Shown: positions 2,556-45,459 of the stretch, piece after piece | Layout: every line of letters begins with the position of its first letter | Numbering within the stretch: position 1 is the first letter of the stretch | DNA from: a virus | Reading direction: 5' to 3' (one strand) | Virus record (IMG/VR): IMGVR_UViG_3300030390_001877 | Location: 32,001-96,000 of that record | DNA length: 64,000 nucleotides | Program-made: the position numbers and the translations under genes | The notes under the pieces: model-generated | Told to the model about the DNA's origin: nothing | The model's database searches: none | The model's input: only the letters and a program-made list of their open reading frames with translations

Positions 2556-3893
2556 CATTTACATTTGTTTTCTGTGAAAACATGTTATATGTTAAAGAAG
2601 GATTTACTTAACCTAAAAGGAGGTTGTTATGTTTTTAGCCCATAAGGTCGAACTGAGGCCTTCTAAAGAACAACAAGAAAAATTACTACAATGGATTGGA
2701 ACAACCCGACATTGTTTTAATAATTTACTAAGTAACTTTTCTAAAGAAGGTGTTAAGTTTTCTAAGAAAACTGCTAGGGAATACCTTTATAACACGTTAC
2801 GTGTTGATAATGAATGGTATTCTGACATAAGTCAGGAAATCTTACGAGAAACTATCAATGATTTAGAAAACGCTTACAAACGTTTCTTTAAGAAACTTGG
2901 AGGTTATCCAAGATTCAAGAAACGTGGAAGTAAAGCTTCTTTCTCTGTAAGAGACAAGGCTAAGTTTAAAGTAGAAGGTAGAAATCTTTACTTAGAAAAG
3001 TTTAATAAAGGTAAAGAGGGTAAGCCTTTAAAGTTACGTGAGAAACTTCGTTTCGAAGGGACTCCTAAGCAGGTCACCATTTCTTTCCAGAATGGAAAGT
3101 GGTGGGCTTCTATCTTAGTGGAAGGTTGCTCCAATTATAAAGGTAGTTTTCCGCAAAGCGGGGAAGCAGGGATTGATTTAGGTATTAAAGATTTAGCTAC
3201 ATTGTCTGATGGAACTACGTTCCAAAAGAGTAATAAGCTAACATTAAGTTTAAAGAAGTTATCTAAACTTCAAAGAGTATTTTCTAAGAAGAAGAAAGGT
3301 TCTAATCGTAGAGCGAAAGCCAAGCTTTCGATTAGTAAGCTTCATTTTAGAATAAAGAAACAACGTGAAGCATTGCTTCACAACGTAAGCCATACTATTA
3401 CATCTAAATATAAAACAATCTGCTTAGAAGATTTGTCTATCTCGTCTATGACGAAAGGTAAGAATAAGTCATTAAACAGAATGATTTTAGATGTAGGTAT
3501 GTATGAGTTGCGTAGGCAACTAGAGTATAAATCTTTTCTGAGAGGTGTTGACATCCACTTCGTGGATAGGTATTATCCTTCAAGTAAACTACATTATGAG
3601 TGTGGCTTTAAGAATGACAACCTTAAATTAGGAGAATCTAATTGGAAGTGTGGTAACTGTGGTCAACAAGTTGACCGAGATTTAAATGCTTCCAAGAATA
3701 TCCTAAAAGAAGGGGTGAAACACTTACGTGTTTAAAGTATAAATTGTGGACGTAGTTCACGAGAGGAGACAGGTACAAGCTTCTCTATAATCCCTACGGA
3801 GTAGGAAATGTAATCCTTAATTTATTAAGTTGTTTCTGTTAATTACGTAGATAACCTAACGAATGTTTCATTCGTTGCGGTTTTATGTATCGG
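2552..3893 (+). mobile_element. non-autonomous IS607-like element (tnpB only)
   Basis: tnpB with no tnpA; GG(AA) at both inferred junctions; subterminal hairpin AACGAATG-TTT-CATTCGTT at 3858-3876; element ends in CGG. Confidence 0.65.
2629..3735 (+). CDS. tnpB: RNA-guided endonuclease TnpB (IS607-type)
   Basis: N-terminal AHKVELRP; RuvC I GIDLG, RuvC II CLEDL, RuvC III DRDLNAS; Zn ribbon HYECG...CGNCG. Confidence 0.95.
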   Translation: MFLAHKVELRPSKEQQEKLLQWIGTTRHCFNNLLSNFSKEGVKFSKKTAREYLYNTLRVDNEWYSDISQEILRETINDLENAYKRFFKKLGGYPRFKKRGSKASFSVRDKAKFKVEGRNLYLEKFNKGKEGKPLKLREKLRFEGTPKQVTISFQNGKWWASILVEGCSNYKGSFPQSGEAGIDLGIKDLATLSDGTTFQKSNKLTLSLKKLSKLQRVFSKKKKGSNRRAKAKLSISKLHFRIKKQREALLHNVSHTITSKYKTICLEDLSISSMTKGKNKSLNRMILDVGMYELRRQLEYKSFLRGVDIHFVDRYYPSSKLHYECGFKNDNLKLGESNWKCGNCGQQVDRDLNASKNILKEGVKHLRV

Positions 3894-3913
3894 AAAGATT
3901 GATTTTATTAAGA
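3736..3913 (+). ncRNA. putative TnpB omega-RNA (scaffold plus ~20-nt guide)
   Basis: About 160 nt non-coding, hairpin-containing tract after tnpB; the predicted guide is flank 3894-3913. The 5' end may lie inside tnpB. Confidence 0.55.
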
Positions 3914-3928
3914 TAAAGGAGGTTTGAG

Positions 3929-4537
3929 ATGAAGAGTTTTGAAGAAGATTTTTATACAGAGGATTATGATAAAGAGATGTTGGATTTTATCGAGGAGAAT
4001 TATTCTGTAGATAAGGTTAATGGTTGGGTTGTACAAGCCTCACTGATCCACCGTCACGGAGAGTTTTTCGTTTCAAGATACGATGGTAAAGATCGTGGTC
4101 TGGAACTCTTAACAAAAGAACAATTTAAGGAGAAGATTGGTATGACAGAAAATCTTACAAATAAGATTACTCCATCTGATGAGGGCGTGTTTACGAAAGA
4201 TATGCTTAAAGATGGTATGTTCGTTAAAATGAAGGGGAATATTTACATGGTGCTTGGGAAAGTATTATGTTCTTATGACCGTTATATTTTATTAGAAGAT
4301 TATGATGATGGTTTGAACGATAATGAAGAAGAAGTGTGGAATATCCAAGAAGTGTATATAGTAGAAGGAGAGGATAATATTGCGCCATTAAACTATTTCC
4401 TCAGCGGTAATGGTTTAAAATCTATCTGGAAACGTCCTCCAGAGAAAACCCTTGCACAAAAACACCTTGAGGAGAAGATTGCTATTACAAGAAAGCACCT
4501 TCTGGAATTAGAGAAACTTTTAGAGGAGAATTCTTAA
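3929..4537 (+). CDS. hypothetical protein
   Basis: 202 aa; AGGAGG SD. Confidence 0.75.
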   Translation: MKSFEEDFYTEDYDKEMLDFIEENYSVDKVNGWVVQASLIHRHGEFFVSRYDGKDRGLELLTKEQFKEKIGMTENLTNKITPSDEGVFTKDMLKDGMFVKMKGNIYMVLGKVLCSYDRYILLEDYDDGLNDNEEEVWNIQEVYIVEGEDNIAPLNYFLSGNGLKSIWKRPPEKTLAQKHLEEKIAITRKHLLELEKLLEENS

Positions 4538-4746
4538 TGACACACGCACACGTACAAAAATGTATTGAATCTGGAAAGATCGATTCTGCAACAAAATTAC
4601 ATGTTACCCAAGAATGTAGGCGTGTGATGGATACCTATGCTGATGAGATGAGAAGGCTTAAACTAGAGATGCTTGAGGTGGAACAGGGTATTTCTGATGC
4701 AAAGGAAACTTTAGAGAAGGTAGCTGATTTGGAGGTGGTGTTGTGA
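4537..4746 (+). CDS. hypothetical coiled-coil protein
   Basis: 69 aa, stop/start overlap. Confidence 0.65.
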   Translation: MTHAHVQKCIESGKIDSATKLHVTQECRRVMDTYADEMRRLKLEMLEVEQGISDAKETLEKVADLEVVL

Positions 4747-5096
4747 GTTTTGATTACGGATATACATGTTATTATATTGACAAAGATATAGACTCTTTCA
4801 AGGAAGCATCCTTCGAAACGTGTAAATGGTTTGTGGAAAGTATCTACTCTGATGAAGGGATTGATATTTCCAAGGAGGCTATTCTTGCGAAGAGTAAGGA
4901 GCTTTCTGGTGAGTTGTATTCTGACGCAGAAGATATCTTCGAGAACACACGTTCTCATAACGAGGATATGCGTGGGGCTGCTGACTCTCAGATAAGTGAT
5001 TTGAAAGGGGGTATAGAAGACTTGGAAGAGAGGTGTCATTTGTTGGAAGAGGAAGTGGCTGCTTTGGAGAAAGAACTTGAGAGGATGAGTGAATGA
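4743..5096 (+). CDS. hypothetical coiled-coil protein
   Basis: 117 aa, GTGA overlap with the previous gene. Confidence 0.7.
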   Translation: MSFDYGYTCYYIDKDIDSFKEASFETCKWFVESIYSDEGIDISKEAILAKSKELSGELYSDAEDIFENTRSHNEDMRGAADSQISDLKGGIEDLEERCHLLEEEVAALEKELERMSE

Positions 5097-5353
5097 ATAA
5101 ATTAGATTATGAAAAACTAGGTAACCTTATTATGGAGAATGGTCTTGAGGGTGGAATGGGTTTATTCTTTTCTTACGAAGGAGAAGAACACTTTGCAGAA
5201 CAGGTGGAACTTTTAGAATTAGATTTATTTGCATCAACGGAATGCTTAGAACATGTGATCAAGCGGTTAATGTATAAGTATTTACAAGAATGGGGTAAAC
5301 AAGATAAAATAGAGGAAATCTTTCAACCTATGGTGGATATTTGTGATGAGTAA
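5093..5353 (+). CDS. hypothetical protein
   Basis: 86 aa, ATGA overlap. Confidence 0.7.
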   Translation: MNKLDYEKLGNLIMENGLEGGMGLFFSYEGEEHFAEQVELLELDLFASTECLEHVIKRLMYKYLQEWGKQDKIEEIFQPMVDICDE

Positions 5354-10324: not shown

Positions 10325-12655
10325 ATGCAAGCAGAGTTTTTAAAAGATAAGAGTAAATTTACAAATAGGTTGCTGCATAGTGACGTGGAAGCTAGAGGCT
10401 TTATAGATATAGTTAATAAACCTGAAGATGTGTGGTGTTTGGTTTCAAGAGATGATGAAACTGATGAGGTATTTATATTCCACGACTACCCTGAGTACGA
10501 TAACGCAGAAGTATTCGACCAAGGAGAGAAACATATTATTCCTCCTAGAACAGGAACTCTCTTAGACGGAGTTAGGTTTTGGTATCTAGCAGGTAAGAAT
10601 GGTAGTAAGCTATCTGTGCATAACTGCTTCACCTATGATAAACCTTTAATAGAAAAGATCTGGCCTAAGTGTATTATTGATGATGATGTTTGGGTAGATA
10701 CTTTTATACAAAGTAAGATTCAATATTTTGACAGACCACAACGGAAAGGAGCTAAATCTCCTCACGGTTTGTTGAATTACTCTTTGATGGAAGGTAATAA
10801 GAAACCTGAAGTAGAAGACTTTAGTATTATGAATGCTTTTATGCTACATCGTTGTATAGTAGATACTAAGACTCAGAAGTTTGCACATAACTATCTTAAA
10901 AAAGAAAGAGATATGCTTTTGAGTAAGCTTGGTATTGACATGCAAGATGCTTATAAGATGGAGGTAGAGTATACAAAAACATGTTACGAGCAAGAACAGT
11001 ACGGAGCTAAGGTAGATGTACCACATATTAAAAAATGTATTGAATATCTTGATAAAACTACCGCAGATCTAGCAAAAGATATAACACCTAAACTCCCTCC
11101 TACTATTAAGGTAAGTGGTGGCAAAGTATCTCGTGTTGAGATGGCAGGTTTGTTTGGTTATGATACATCTGGTATGAAAGATGAGATGGAAATGGTTAAG
11201 AAAGATGGTGAAATGGTTTCCCAACCAGTTAAACCTTATTATAAACCTACCACTAATTTCCATACTATTAAAAAAGTTAATCAATATTCAGGTTTTAATA
11301 TTTCCTACGGGTACAGCCCTAAGTTTACTAAAAAGAATGACCTGACTAAATGGATTAAATCTCAACACCCCAAAGGTGACACTGCAAAAGTAAAAGAGTT
11401 ATCAGACTTCGTAAAAGAATGGGAGATTGATAAAAACATTGAAGAAACTAAACTTTTAAATAAAAACACTTGTGATTATTTTGAAGTAGAACCAGAAGAT
11501 ATAGATGTTATTGCTGGTGCTCACACTAAAATTAAGTTTGTTGAAAGCTCTTTGACCCAACATGAAGTGGTAAAAGGTTATCTGATAAAAGAAGGTATAA
11601 AATTCGCAGAAGAATGGAATCTTAAGAAGGATGGTGAAGGTCAGATCATAAAAGCTGAATTTGATACTGAAGTTAGGTATCCACCTAAAGCCAGAAGAGA
11701 TCAACAAATGGTGTTGAAGATTAAAAAGGGTGATGCATTAGTAACTTCCCCTAAGTTCGGGGAAAAAGAATATGCTCAATTAGAATCAGAAGATGGTAAG
11801 AATGTAGGTATGTACAACACTTTGGTACACCGTAGGCGTTACCTTGAGAACTACAAAGACCCAGAAAATAAAGGCTTACTTTCTTACGTAAGAGAAGATG
11901 GTAGGGTTGGTGCTGGTGTTAATAACTTCAACACTGCAACTGGGCGCGCATCACACAGAAAAATTGTAAATTTGCCTGCTGATGGTGCTGTATTTGGTAA
12001 AGAAATGCGACAATGTATTGTTGCTGATGAAGGAAAAGAGTTAGTCGGTATTGACCAAAAATCTAGCCAACTTTCTATATGCGCTTTTGTAACTAACAAT
12101 ACAGATTATTATGAGGCGGTTGCGACAGGGGTAGAATTCGAAAATGATGAAAATGGAAATCCTATTTTCCATGGTTCTAGTGCTCATTGTGTGAATTCAA
12201 GATATTTTAATTTGGTAACCAAAGAAGAATGGGCAGATGCAGTAAGAACACAAAACCCAGATTTGATACATGATATTGTACTCAGACGTAAAAAATCCAA
12301 AGGATTAAGTTTCGCTTCGTTATTTGGTTGTGGTCCTGCTAAGTTAGCTTTAATGGGTGGTTTTGAAGTATCAGAAGCTAAAACAAAACTGCAAGCCTTC
12401 TTAGATAATATGGGTTTATCTGAGGTAATAAAATTTCTAGAAGTATGTAGGGAGAAATACAAAAGAGGTAAAGGTTTTTATATACCAACAGGGTTTGGGT
12501 ATTGGGTTTATTGCGGAGGTGTACATAAATCAACCAACTACCTGATCCAGTCGCTAGAAGGAGTGGTGCAAAAGAAAGCAGTTGAAATAATGAAACAGAG
12601 GTTTATAGAAAAAGGTTATTGGGGAAAAAGCGTTAATAAAATACTTGATATGCAT
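10325..12655 (+). CDS. family A DNA polymerase, exon 1 (spliced product 844 aa)
   Basis: Exo I SDVE, Exo II HN..YD, Exo III HRC.VD; motif A IDQKSSQL; motif B RKKSKGLSFASLFG; ends at the H of motif C. Confidence 0.93.
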
Positions 12656-12961
12656 AAATATTGTGCCTTCTAACCGTGAGGTTAGTCGAATAACTCCGTT
12701 AATTACTGGAAACCTTAACTAGATTTGTTAATATTATCGTGAGATAAATTTAACATGTTTGTAGAAGGTGATCAGAAGCCACACTGTTCTTACAGTAGGT
12801 TCAGAGACTATCGAAAGCGTATGTATCAATGGAAGATACTATATACAGCAAGTAGAGTAGGGTTCAAGCGAATTCGAAAATGGAGCATCTTAGTTAAGAT
12901 GATTATATAGTCCGACTCTGTTAGAAATAACAGGAGATTTAGCGAGTCTCATAAGTAGGTG
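12656..12961 (+). mobile_element. group I intron, ORF-less (306 nt), in DNA polymerase motif C
   Basis: P1 GCAU/GUGC with U.G at the 5' splice site; P7 GAGACUA/UAGUCC; terminal G at 12961; splicing restores MH|DEVLL. Confidence 0.92.
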
Positions 12962-13165
12962 GATGAAGTATTATTAGAAGTAGATAAAGGTATGGGTGTT
13001 GAGGTAGGCAAAATCGCTTGTGAAGCTTACACTCAAGCTGGAGTGGAATTAAATAAATGGTATAAAGAAAATTTACATTTATATCCTGCAGGCGGTACAC
13101 CTAAGATTACCTGTGATTTTGCAGGAGGTTATGCTGTTGGGGTAGACTACGCAAGTTGCCATTGA
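12962..13165 (+). CDS. family A DNA polymerase, exon 2
   Basis: DEVLLEV...GVDYASCH, the typical PolA C-terminus. Confidence 0.92.
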   Translation, partial: DEVLLEVDKGMGVEVGKIACEAYTQAGVELNKWYKENLHLYPAGGTPKITCDFAGGYAVGVDYASCH

Positions 13166-27923: not shown

Positions 27924-28889
27924 TTATTTAGTTGTGGATAATCCAGAGGTAGCCCCTACATATCCTATCAGTTGTTTCATCTCGTCTGCGGAAGAGTTGT
28001 TGAAAATATAGGTGTTTCCCCCTTGTTGTTGATTACTTGTAGAAGGATTACCATCAGAGAACATATAGTTATAAGCTCCTTTCAGAGTAGGATATGCTGT
28101 CAAGTTTAATAATGAAGCTGAGTCTCTTTGTGATGAGAGGATATTCCCTAAGAAAGAGTTTTCATCTAAACCAAATAATTGACTTGTTTTACCTGCTCTA
28201 AGCTTTCCTTCTTTATCCTGAGTAAACCCTGATGTGGTCATTTCCCTGAGGTTAACCTGCATACCTGCACTTTCTTCTATATTACCCACAATCTTATCCG
28301 AGAAAAGAGATACTAATTCTTCTGCTGCTGCTAAGGCTAGTGTGATTGGAAGGAATGCTTTTGCTAAAGCTGCGTTAGTGGATAAAGCTACTATACCCAT
28401 AGTCTTACCAAAGGCTAGAAGTTTACTTATCGCTAAAGCTCCGAACAATAGTTCAAAGTTATCAATAGCAACTTTAATCACAGGTTCTATAAGCTTTAAA
28501 GAATAAGCAATCCCATTAAATACTGCTCCGAATATTTTACCCATCTTCTCAAGTTGTGGTCCTGAGGTTTTGAGTATTTGTGAAATTGTTTTGTAAAGAT
28601 TAGATAATCCTTCTGAGAAACCTGATTTGAAGATAGTATCTCCTGCACGCTGGGTTTCTGTGATCATCTGACCTTCTGTAACACGTAATCCTTGAAGAGC
28701 CTTATCGAAAGCGCCACCTTCTAGAGCTGCCTTTTTTAGTTCGGCGGCTACTTTAGGTAATACTTCTGAGGAAACAAGTTGACCCTGCTCCATCATCTTG
28801 AATAATTCTGCTTCTGAGACGTTTAGTGCTCTGCTGAACACCTGAACTGCACCTGGAAGGCTATCACCTAGCTGATTTTTGAGTTCCTC
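27924..28889 (-). CDS. tape measure protein, exon 3
   Basis: Begins EELKNQLGDSLPGA (tape measure domain motif). Confidence 0.92.
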   Translation of the reverse strand, partial: EELKNQLGDSLPGAVQVFSRALNVSEAELFKMMEQGQLVSSEVLPKVAAELKKAALEGGAFDKALQGLRVTEGQMITETQRAGDTIFKSGFSEGLSNLYKTISQILKTSGPQLEKMGKIFGAVFNGIAYSLKLIEPVIKVAIDNFELLFGALAISKLLAFGKTMGIVALSTNAALAKAFLPITLALAAAEELVSLFSDKIVGNIEESAGMQVNLREMTTSGFTQDKEGKLRAGKTSQLFGLDENSFLGNILSSQRDSASLLNLTAYPTLKGAYNYMFSDGNPSTSNQQQGGNTYIFNNSSADEMKQLIGYVGATSGLSTTK

Positions 28890-29828
28890 CAGTAAAGCTA
28901 ATAAAATCAATAACTTAGCTAAACACCTACACCTTCTCAGGGTAGCCTGATCATATCATAACCCTCGCCATTCTACGTTAGGGTTCCTGCCTTTTCTTCC
29001 TCTAAGAGGTTCTACTCTACTAACTTACCAAAGGTAGTCTACGCTACCTTATCCGCTTTCGATGATCGATGATCGTGAATCTACTTCTTACGTTTATTTA
29101 CTGTTATACTATATTGTTCCCATATGTGTTTCCAAGCATGTCCTGCACGTATCTTAGTGGCTTGCTGTCTACTGATTTCGTACTTTTCAACAGCTTCTTT
29201 AGGCATCATACCTTTCTCAAAATCTTTACAAACTTTGTGTACTAAATCTTCTGTTAAAACACTTCTACCATTCAAAGTACCTTTTAGTGCTGGTGTATTA
29301 CCGACTCTCCAAGACTCTTTAGTGTTGTGTTCGTGCGTACACCATTCCAGATTAGAGTAGTGGTTATTAGTCTTATCATGGTCAATATGATTAACACAAA
29401 CAACATAAGGGTAGTTTTCTGAACATAACTTTTTCAATTCTTCCGAAGGCTCTTCTAAAAAATACATTGCTACTAATCTGTGGACTTTTCTAGCAAATGT
29501 CTTACCATCTTTCTTAAATTGTACTTGGTAGTAACCCTGTTTATTTACAGGTACGTATTTCTTAGTTTTGGTTTTAATGTTCCTTATTAAACCTTCACAG
29601 TTTATTTCATACTTAGGAAATTCTTCTATAACTTTAAACATAAATATAACCCTTATTCTATTAAAAGGTTATTGTAGATCATTCGAGGCTGATTGTCAAT
29701 ATTTTCAGAATTTTTAGGGTTCGCTACTATGTCACCATGTAGTATCCTATCTGAAATCTAACTTGAGTTCCCAGCAGTTAAACAGGTTATTCGATAACAG
29801 TTTCCTGTTAAAGGGCCAAAGAACTTTT
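28890..29828 (-). mobile_element. group I intron (939 nt) encoding an HNH endonuclease
   Basis: P1 GGCU/GGCC; P10 GAGGAACU/AGUUCUUU; P7 variant GAUCA/UGAUC; terminal G at 28890; restores KVMA|EEL. Confidence 0.9.
29081..29641 (-). CDS. intron-encoded HNH homing endonuclease (I-HmuI-like)
   Basis: NUMOD4-like N-terminus; VHRLVA; VNHIDHDKTNNHYSNLEW. Confidence 0.9.
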   Translation of the reverse strand: MFKVIEEFPKYEINCEGLIRNIKTKTKKYVPVNKQGYYQVQFKKDGKTFARKVHRLVAMYFLEEPSEELKKLCSENYPYVVCVNHIDHDKTNNHYSNLEWCTHEHNTKESWRVGNTPALKGTLNGRSVLTEDLVHKVCKDFEKGMMPKEAVEKYEISRQQATKIRAGHAWKHIWEQYSITVNKRKK

Positions 29829-29853
29829 AGCCATTACCTTCCCTTTTGACATC
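29829..29853 (-). CDS. tape measure protein, exon 2 (25-nt micro-exon)
   Basis: G ATG TCA AAA GGG AAG GTA ATG GCT completes ALIQM-MSKGKVMA-EEL. Confidence 0.9.
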
Positions 29854-30148
29854 CAATCTCTTCGAGTAAGTACGTTAACCCTTACTCCGCAAGTTCCTTA
29901 TTGCAGCTCTATATCACTATAGAAGTTGAGACTATATCTTCACCCTTACCGTTACGTATTAGGGGTTGTGCGCTTCCACTCACTTGAGTGTACAGGTTTC
30001 ATAATCCCAGAAGGATCGTTTACCTTAGTCGTTACACCTTGATAAGAATTACTTCCTACCCTTGGCTCGGTATTGTCTACTTGAGAGTTCCACCGAATTC
30101 ACACAATTTGTTCATGCTTATTACTAAGCAGCCAGACAATAATCGTCT
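29854..30148 (-). mobile_element. group I intron, ORF-less (295 nt)
   Basis: P1 CCAGAU/GUCUGG; P7 ACGACUA/UAGUCU; terminal G at 29854. Confidence 0.92.
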
Positions 30149-31317
30149 ATCTGGATCAAAGCTTTCTGACTTCGCTTCATGCTTTCGTCATCTACTTTCA
30201 ATGATGTACCAAACATACTCAATCCTGTGAATATATCTTCTTGCTGATCTTGAGAAATCTTACCTTTTGCAGCAAATTTGAACTTTACCCAAGCATCAGT
30301 TGTATCTTTTAAACTAAGTCCCATCTTATCAACAATACTATTGATAAAAAGCATATCTGTTGCTGCGGCATCAGCACTACCAGCAGCAGCTAGCATAGAT
30401 GCATCGATCCCTTGAAATGTCTGCCCAACACGTTTAATAGCAACAGTCCCTTCAAACAAAGCAAACAAACTTGCATAAGAACGGATCATATTACGAGTAG
30501 AGTCATTTAATCCTCCCTGAACAACATTCAATCCCATCATATTACGTTTTAAAGATTTAGTCTCTCTGTTAACAGATCTCATCTCAGAAGCTAGACGAGT
30601 CATTGCAGCAGTGTCACCTACTCTAACAGCATCTCCAAATCTTTTATCATAAGAAGACATATCCTTTCCAGAAGATTTCATGTTCTGATAATAAGCTGTA
30701 CTTTGGAAACGTGCTATCTTGTTTGCAAAAGCTTGTTGACGTTTAGTAGCAGCCTTGGCAAGCTTATCCTGCTGTGCGTAGAAGTCTTTCATCTTCTTGA
30801 GTTCTTCATCTTGGGCAGTCATCTTCTTGACGTGTTGCTTCATGAAAGCATTATTAACTTCTTCACTAGAAGATTTTATTTTAGCATTATTCCTAAGTTT
30901 TATTTTAAGAAGATCTTGCTCTCGTTTGTTTTCCTTTTTAAAACGTTCTTCTACATTAGCTTTTAAAGCAGCTTCCACCCTATTAAAGTCCGATACCTTA
31001 GCAGAAGCTACATCCCTCCCAGCTTGCTTACTTTGCTTGTAAACTTTTAACCTTTCTTGTAAAGATTTCCTGCCGTTAGAAATTTCCTTATCTCTCGCAG
31101 CTTTGTCTTCTTTAATACGTTTGTTGATGATGTACTTTTGGTAATTAGCCGTCCCTTTAAGATCTTTCCTTTTAGACCTCTCAATCTTACCAGACCTTTT
31201 TACAGCCCTCATCCCCATGGAATCCAGCATCTTATCGATTTCTTTAGCTTGTTTACCAACTCCTTTAGTATTCAAGTCTATATCAATAAAAAACTGTTCA
31301 ATCATATTATCTGCCAT
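30149..31317 (-). CDS. tape measure protein, exon 1 (spliced product 719 aa)
   Basis: Helical, Lys/Ala-rich; ends inside the tape measure domain (RSQKALIQ). Confidence 0.92.
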
Positions 31318-31656: not shown

Positions 31657-32042
31657 CCTTTGAAGTTTACCTCCAATGCAAACATGATTAATGTCTGGTA
31701 AGAGTGAATACTTCCTGCAAAATCTCTCTCTACATCTAAAGGTTGTCCATCTACTTGAGCACCTACTAACATTTCATCAATAAGAGCCTCCATATCTGGT
31801 GTACGTAATTTGCTTGAAACAATCGTAAGTATTTCTCGGAAAGTATTTTGTTTCTCAAACATTATAGCTTCATCAACATTACGTGAATCAATAACTTCAC
31901 CAAAGATAGGACCAACCATTTCTAAAAGAAGTGTCCATCCTCTCCAACCAGCTTTTACACCTAGAGGTTTTATTGTGAAGGTTTTATTGTTGATGATTTT
32001 ATCGTGTTGTTTGAAGTATGCACCCATATCGAAATCTGACAT
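31572..32042 (-). CDS. tail assembly chaperone
   Basis: Between tail tube and tape measure genes; ends ...FALEVNFKGFF. Confidence 0.85.
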   Translation of the reverse strand: MSDFDMGAYFKQHDKIINNKTFTIKPLGVKAGWRGWTLLLEMVGPIFGEVIDSRNVDEAIMFEKQNTFREILTIVSSKLRTPDMEALIDEMLVGAQVDGQPLDVERDFAGSIHSYQTLIMFALEVNFKGFFTESDIFQSVTDGFHKMMGRTDIEEE

Positions 32043-44871: not shown

Positions 44872-45156
44872 CTATTGTTGTTCAAAGAAGTTCGTTACTC
44901 TTCTTCCGTCTATAAAGACTGCCTTATATCACTATAAGAGTTCAGACTATATCATCATCTACGTGAGATGCTGTGCGCTTCCACCCACTTAGGTGTACAG
45001 GTTTCATAATCCTTTCTAAAGGATCGTTTACCTTAGTCGTTGCACCTTCAAACTGATTACTCAGTAAGCTTGGCTCAGAATTGTCTTTCGTAAAAGAGTT
45101 TCTCTGAATTCACACAGTTATCGATATGTATCGCTACATAAAGGGGCACACTGTTT
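44872..45156 (-). mobile_element. group I intron, ORF-less (285 nt), after terL Walker B
   Basis: P1 GGGU/GCCC; P10 ACAC/GUGU; P7 ACGACUA/UAGUCU; terminal G at 44872; restores IDEG|TQF. Confidence 0.92.
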
Positions 45157-45459
45157 ACCCTCATCTATACCAACAAATGTAAACTCTTGTCCCTGAGCAT
45201 CCATCTTTGACCTAGCTACGTTCTCTGCTTGCTGGTATTTTATTTTAGCACCATTAGGAAATACTACTTCCATCTTATGATCTCTTATTGCCTTAGGTTC
45301 AGAACCTTTAGGCATCTGTTCGTAAATTGCTCTGGCGTTAGGCCAAAGTCCCCCTAATAACTGCGGGTTTGTTCTACGGTACATGATGCAGTTTGTCTTA
45401 CCGTCATCTAAAAGCATTAGAGGGAGGTGATTTAGTATGGTACTTTTCCCAGATCCTGC
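45157..45459 (-). CDS. terL: terminase large subunit, exon 2
   Basis: AGSGKS ... FVGIDEG (Walker A 3' half to Walker B), 101 codons. Confidence 0.92.

Follow-up and report, generated by a model that had tools for sequence, protein, structure and literature searches.

The tape-measure gene of an uncultured marine phage appears to be assembled from three exons by the removal of two tandem group I introns, which lie on either side of an internal exon of 25 nucleotides (nt). The gene lies in the window analysed here, a stretch of 64,000 nt covering positions 32,001 to 96,000 of IMG/VR record IMGVR_UViG_3300030390_001877, a genome of 132 kb that is complete, with terminal repeats. We consider it very probable that the two introns are selfish elements, independently acquired in a conserved target, and that the tape measure depends on splicing both of them out. 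As the initial annotation of this DNA had proposed, a full-length protein would be possible only once both introns are removed. The parts of the gene all lie on the minus strand (window coordinates):

31317-30149, minus strand: tape-measure exon 1, 1169 nt, encoding residues 1-389 and two bases of the Met390 codon
30148-29854, minus strand: intron 1, 295 nt, a group I intron lacking an open reading frame (ORF)
29853-29829, minus strand: micro-exon, 25 nt, holding the third base of the Met390 codon, then MSKGKVMA
29828-28890, minus strand: intron 2, 939 nt, a group I intron with an HNH gene in the loop of its P6a hairpin
29641-29081, minus strand: HNH homing-endonuclease gene, 186 amino acids (aa), inside intron 2
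29670-29087, minus strand: HNH cassette, a 584-nt insertion relative to ORF-less copies of intron 2, placed by alignment with the phages J2-1, HM1, H101 and PH357
28889-27924, minus strand: tape-measure exon 3, 966 nt, encoding residues 399-719 and the stop codon

Gene model and splice junctions

When joined, the three exons form a single frame of 2160 nt that encodes 719 aa plus a stop codon and includes ALIQMMSKGKVMAEELKNQLGD. Within the TMP_3 domain (Pfam PF20155), the break falls in the motif that is conserved best. The ORF list gives the locus as pieces: an ORF of 397 aa (31317-30124), the 186-aa ORF (29641-29081) and a TTG-initiated ORF of 328 aa (28910-27924), whose TTG 'start' at 28910 falls within intron 2. 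The first ORF closes with TMP_3 profile positions 5-99 and the third opens with positions 109-163, consistent with a single tape-measure domain that is split and lacks about nine positions, and the micro-exon supplies the part of the profile that is absent between the two large fragments. Alone, the fragments score 31 and 25.4 bits against TMP_3, both below the 41-bit cut-off. The order of genes (sheath, tube, chaperone, tape measure) is the same as in annotated relatives. The three-exon model with two tandem group I introns around a 25-nt micro-exon, and the sequence-level statements that accompanied it in the initial annotation, were reproduced. Its 719-aa product with a restored conserved motif was likewise recovered, the exons joining in frame and without gaps against six uninterrupted homologues.

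These uninterrupted homologues (P0001-P0006; 696-854 aa, all with PF20155) align gap-free with the spliced protein across both junctions, as seen for P0001 in ALSQMMSKDKVMAEELKMQLGD. Alleles that lack one intron or the other locate the junctions in DNA. Pseudoalteromonas phage PH357 is without intron 1 exactly at the predicted site and reads atccagatgatgtcgaaaggg uninterrupted, with atccagat running directly into gatgtc. In a metagenome contig that carries intron 2 and its HNH gene, intron 1 is absent and the base corresponding to 29853 runs straight into exon-1-like sequence. Conversely, the IMG/VR contigs L005 and L006 lack intron 2 and read atggcagaagag uninterrupted. Sliding either insertion by one base alters the joined sequence, so both junctions are fixed to the nucleotide. 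The introns also occur apart (intron 2 only in PH357 and the metagenome contig; of the pair, intron 1 only in L005 and L006), and are therefore separable elements.

Close relatives of the locus were also present in wastewater-labelled metagenome contigs (runs X1-X4; window 28507-30417). The contigs of these four runs are probably DNA and give allele information only. In one metagenome contig of 9 kb, intron 1 is present, intron 2 has no ORF and, further downstream, exon 3 holds an insertion of 1352 nt.

An alternative is that the gene is truly in pieces, with the 397-aa fragment and a fragment of ~320 aa translated separately from unspliced RNA and assembling non-covalently. Gene finders and the GenBank records of relatives do annotate the fragments as separate genes, and a TTG-initiated ORF spans the second fragment. 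However, separate translation would place the break in the middle of the TMP_3 domain, with nine conserved residues lost in the absence of the micro-exon, and the TTG at 28910 lies within conserved, structured RNA. Both interruptions are moreover recognisable group I introns with the correct splice-site rules, and the homologous gene of phage ICP1 is spliced in vivo. We regard a gene in pieces as extremely improbable.

Under the splicing model, the gene would be transcribed as a single pre-mRNA in which each intron folds as its own ribozyme and removes itself by two transesterifications, and the 719-aa tape measure would be encoded by the doubly spliced mRNA only. Ribosomes entering an unspliced intron would hit a stop after 7-8 codons; stops at this distance in both introns would thus keep ribosomes out of the ribozyme core.

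Structure and probable mobility of the two introns

The splice-site pairs were claimed to be set by P1 and the terminal G of each intron, together with an 8-base-pair (bp) P10 in intron 2, and we could read these elements from the sequence. For intron 1, the predicted P1 pairs exon CCAGAU (30154-30149) with GUCUGG (30137-30132). Exon 1 terminates in ...ATCCAGAU at 30149, its last base being the U of the wobble pair U30149.G30137, and the 3' end of the intron reads ...GAGAUUG, with G29854 as the last base. Rfam model RF00028 matches 30158-29907 over its full length (1-253) with 70 bits (E 1e-15; gathering score 50). The intron extends 53 nt past the end of the model at 29907, and this extension comprises two extra hairpins 3' of P9, one of which shows compensatory changes. 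An in-frame stop at 30126-30124 lies eight codons beyond the 5' splice site. Intron 1 is 87-89% identical to its copies in J2-1, H101 and L005, and 23 of the 81 pairs in its consensus fold show compensatory changes; each covariation alignment, here and for intron 2, holds five related sequences only and is supportive without being statistical proof.

In intron 2, P1 is formed by GGCU plus AAA (29832-29826) with UUUGGCC (29820-29814), including U29829.G29817, and the 3' end reads ...UUACUG, with G28890 as the last base. The 8-bp P10 pairs the guide AGUUCUUU (29825-29818) with the start of exon 3, GAGGAACU (28889-28882). An in-frame stop follows seven codons beyond the 5' splice site. The same intron occurs at the same site without the cassette in J2-1, HM1, H101 and PH357, and with its cassette taken out the window's copy is 90.7, 91.0, 85.8 and 82.6% identical to these, respectively. 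The cassette (29670-29087) was removed before alignment, as full-length MAFFT pushed the insertion to the 5' end. Scored against RF00028, the ORF-less copies of J2-1 and HM1 reached 64.2 bits and that of H101 54.5 bits. In the Rfam alignment of the J2-1 copy, P1-P9 are assigned, with a large insertion between P7 and P3' (P7.1/P7.2); extra helices between P7 and P3 are a feature that we take to mark subgroup IA, as in the T4 td/SPO1 class. A consensus fold built from the ORF-less copies and the ICP1 intron at this site has compensatory changes in 29 of 81 pairs.

By the Rfam alignment, the cassette occupies the terminal loop of the P6/P6a hairpin, and the stop codon of the HNH gene lies within the 3' strand of P6a. 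Endonuclease genes in a peripheral loop are familiar from the T4 td intron with I-TevI and from the SPO1/SP82 DNA polymerase introns with I-HmuI-type HNH proteins. Those introns sit in DNA-metabolism genes, whereas the window's are in a virion-structure gene. As the initial annotation had it, only one of the two introns has an ORF, an HNH gene: intron 1 has none, and the ORF in intron 2 (29641-29081) matches phrog_59 (E 9e-38). Its protein contains NHIDHDKTNNHYSNLEW...HEHN and shares ~30% identity with the HNH proteins encoded in introns of J2-1, H101 and ICP1. During co-infection, this HNH endonuclease probably drives intron 2, together with neighbouring sequence that includes intron 1, into alleles free of introns. 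It is plausible, because the two introns are spaced 25 nt apart, that intron 1 is co-mobilised by the HNH protein of intron 2 through co-conversion.

Several points weigh against this interpretation. Splicing in vivo, endonuclease activity and homing are deduced for this phage from sequence, a look for RNA runs containing this stretch listed none, and the phage is an uncultured IMG/VR record whose viability is judged from completeness. An Rfam search of the whole region up to E 10 did not detect the window's intron 2 as a whole, because the 584-nt cassette splits the core; its 3' half alone gave 8.6 bits against RF00028 (E 8), and its assignment to group I is made by orthology. Pfam HNH_3 scored 24.5 bits on the HNH ORF, just below the 24.8 cut-off. 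P10 of intron 1 is weak, with 4 bp, two of them G.U, formed with bases 1-4 of the micro-exon.

The uncultured record, the 584-nt insertion and the weak P10 of intron 1 could instead be taken as signs that decay has abolished the splicing of one intron or of both, leaving a metagenomic genome with a dead tape-measure gene. We find this highly implausible. The genome is complete with terminal repeats, the core helices are all intact, with changes that are compensatory rather than disruptive, and the insertion lies in the P6a terminal loop, a usual place for intron ORFs. The cultured relatives J2-1, HM1 and H101 also have the same two introns.

Intron sites and occupancy in relatives

The introns of relatives were mapped by the rules that the 5' exon ends in U, that the intron ends in G and that the conserved peptide is restored, and the models below are predictions of this kind. 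An IMG/VR search with exon 3 gave eight loci, and the site map is drawn from few genomes. Sites were named 0, 1, 2, C, D, G, F and E, and their occupancy is as follows:

Window: introns 1 and 2 (HNH)
PH357: intron 2
J2-1: introns 1, 2 and E (HNH)
HM1: introns 1 (with a different HNH-type ORF), 2 and F
L005 and L006: introns 1, C (249-aa ORF) and F
H101: introns 1, 2, C, D and E (HNH), with exons of 25, 8, 11 and 20 nt
ICP1: introns 2, C (HNH) and G
L007: intron D
L008, L009 and L011: intron C
L010: intron 0 (~8 nt upstream of site 1)
L012 and P0001-P0006: no introns

The insertion sites in relatives thus number at least eight within ~72 coding bases of the TMP_3 motif. Each of the 17 introns mapped in relatives (17/17) follows the U-end and G-end rules, and the motif is restored in every model. 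The window, J2-1, HM1, H101 and L005 share an unchanged peptide ALIQMMSKGKVMAEELKNQLGDSLPGAVQ, in which PH357 has a single residue different; the 25-nt micro-exon is also present in J2-1, HM1 and H101. The codon before site 2 is GCT in all six carriers (6/6) and GCA or GCG in three non-carriers, and the codon before site F is CCT in the two carriers and CCA, CCG or CCC in non-carriers. The U.G requirement predicts such a T-ending codon in carriers. At the DNA level, the window and J2-1 are ~50% identical through most of the gene and 91% identical just upstream of the introns. This segment is suggestive of exchange by gene conversion, but it is also a conserved domain. When an uninterrupted homologue was used to survey 1165 phage records, most tape-measure genes among the matches listed aligned unbroken across the motif, so interruption appears confined to certain lineages.

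Endonuclease genes occupy different introns of the cluster in different phages. In HM1 (L002 2830-3686), intron 1 has a 176-aa ORF in its P5 region with Pfam HNH_5 and HNH matches and the PHROG annotation 'endonuclease VII'. Set beside the HNH_3-type gene in intron 2 of the window, this nuclease looks like endonuclease turnover within one cluster.

The relatives infect Pseudoalteromonas, and Pseudoalteromonas phage H101 (NC_029094, L003 2857-5346) appears to have five tandem group I introns, at 2857-3141, 3167-3493, 3502-3863, 3875-4279 and 4300-5346, the last with an HNH gene. Predicted splicing restores EELKNQLGDSLPG exactly, and GenBank annotates fragments only. Its 8-nt exon would pair in P10 with one intron and in P1 with the next. 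A first exon model for introns C and D of H101, which followed Rfam's placement of P1 and read EELLANLGD, was replaced when comparison with L005 gave an 11-nt exon and EELKNQLGD. L010, a 142-kb IMG/VR contig, has a group I intron at 150-438 (89.9 bits), ~4 kb upstream of the tape-measure gene.

The initial annotation had also predicted that omission of the micro-exon would give QMRNSKIS-stop. Joining exon 1 directly to exon 3 reproduced this end (...ALIQMRNSKIS-stop), and exon skipping here is possible in principle. Such a defined truncated product is what could favour a double intron co-opted as a regulator, whether the order or efficiency of splicing governed how much tape measure is made, or when, or skipping yielded a useful protein of 397 aa. 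Ordered splicing, as first suggested for this gene, does not follow from the pairings: P10 of intron 1 takes bases 1-4 of the micro-exon and P1 of intron 2 takes bases 22-25, so the two fall on different ends, do not compete and impose no order. Close relatives carry anywhere between zero and five introns at eight sites with the peptide unchanged, a pattern of selfish turnover, and the same protein is encoded with a single intron in PH357 and with no intron in the P0001 phage. The accompanying idea of control over tape-measure dose or timing was speculation, and a conserved regulatory role is hard to square with intron content that varies freely among close relatives encoding one and the same peptide. 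We therefore think a regulatory device very unlikely, and the best reading of the arrangement is an accumulation of selfish elements on a conserved target.

A more elaborate joint reading extends this picture. In it, the ~72-nt stretch encoding ALIQMMSKGKVMAEELKNQLGDSLPG would be a shared landing pad on which independent group I introns accumulate and swap endonuclease genes in marine myophages of Pseudoalteromonas and Vibrio. In the densest cases, H101 among them, neighbouring ribozymes would share eight exon bases for P10 and P1, forcing a fixed order of splicing, and the two-intron gene would be an early or reduced stage in which splicing kinetics could limit tape-measure supply. Taken together, this combination of claims seems to us unlikely.

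Precedents, other introns in the genome and implications

The initial annotation was unaware of any tape-measure gene for which such introns had been described, and here it requires correction: they are known both in prophages of the Bacillus cereus group (PMC2504315) and in Vibrio phage ICP1 (PMC10448857). The tape-measure transcript of ICP1 has four exons and three introns, established by RNA sequencing, reverse transcription PCR and Sanger sequencing (Barth et al. 2023; PMC10448857). An HNH-3 endonuclease gene is usually found in the middle intron, different endonuclease genes occupy introns 1 and 3 in one isolate, terL is also spliced with a free-standing endonuclease gene adjoining it, and the tape-measure gene is called frequently interrupted (PMC10448857). 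In our map of ICP1_2006_E, an intron appears to follow ATGGCT, succeeded by an 8-nt exon, the HNH intron, a 16-nt exon and a third intron.

The ICP1 tape measure is homologous to that of the window (~30% identity), and in both phages several tandem introns lie in the same conserved motif. The first ICP1 intron maps to the site of intron 2 in the window, after ATGGCT, with 80% identity over 109 nt in its 5' half. Both loci have an HNH_3-type endonuclease in one intron (~30% identical), and both genomes have terL introns with a neighbouring HNH gene. Unlike the window, ICP1 has site 1 empty and introns at two further sites, with micro-exons that we infer to be 8 and 16 nt long. Its endonuclease gene is in the middle intron, and its splicing is experimentally demonstrated, whereas that of the window's gene is predicted from sequence. 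The two-intron gene is thus an ordinary example, and its nearest precedent is the homologous ICP1 locus.

More distant systems share single features. In the B. cereus-group prophages, group I introns IVS1-3 occupy three positions of the tape-measure gene (Tourasse and Kolsto 2008; PMC2504315). As in the relatives of the window, there are several positions and presence varies, here by strain; however, those phages are temperate, infect Gram-positive hosts and have a longer, different tape measure (over 1200 aa), and their introns are not confined to one motif. In Staphylococcus phage Twort, orf142 holds three group I introns and undergoes exon skipping (Landthaler and Shub 1999, cited in PMC11878797). 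Like the window's gene, orf142 is a tail gene with closely spaced group I introns and short internal exons, so that skipping is possible; it differs in being an unrelated gene (tail tube) from an unrelated host lineage, and in that its splicing and skipping are demonstrated rather than predicted. Exon skipping is also known from the SIOphi DNA polymerase gene.

Further group I introns were found in the same genome, in terL and in a DNA polymerase gene:

44922-45166, minus strand: group I intron, terL region, 90.5 bits
45501-45768, minus strand: group I intron, terL region, 40.1 bits
45813-46622: HNH-like ORF adjoining the terL introns
12646-12934, plus strand: group I intron, 53.7 bits, found in a whole-genome search but not picked up when the window was scanned at the gathering threshold

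Intron 1 of the tape-measure gene is 76% identical over 205 nt to the terL intron at 44922-45166, which suggests that introns have spread within the genome. The intron at 12646-12934 comes after a family A DNA polymerase ORF (10325-12673), and a 68-aa open frame 3' of it (12959-13165, starting VDEVLLEV) looks like the polymerase C-terminus; the intron is therefore probably near motif C.

By itself, the two-intron gene raises no new question and adds one data point to the pattern described for ICP1, in which mobile introns and homing endonucleases are drawn to the conserved TMP_3 motif and the introns turn over while the peptide stays constant. A 25-nt exon is invisible to gene finders, and both these programs and the GenBank records of J2-1, H101, PH357 and ICP1 give a truncated tape measure plus 'hypothetical proteins'. 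With the exon hidden and the gene annotated as fragments, tail-length predictions and protein catalogues would therefore be wrong for this phage group.

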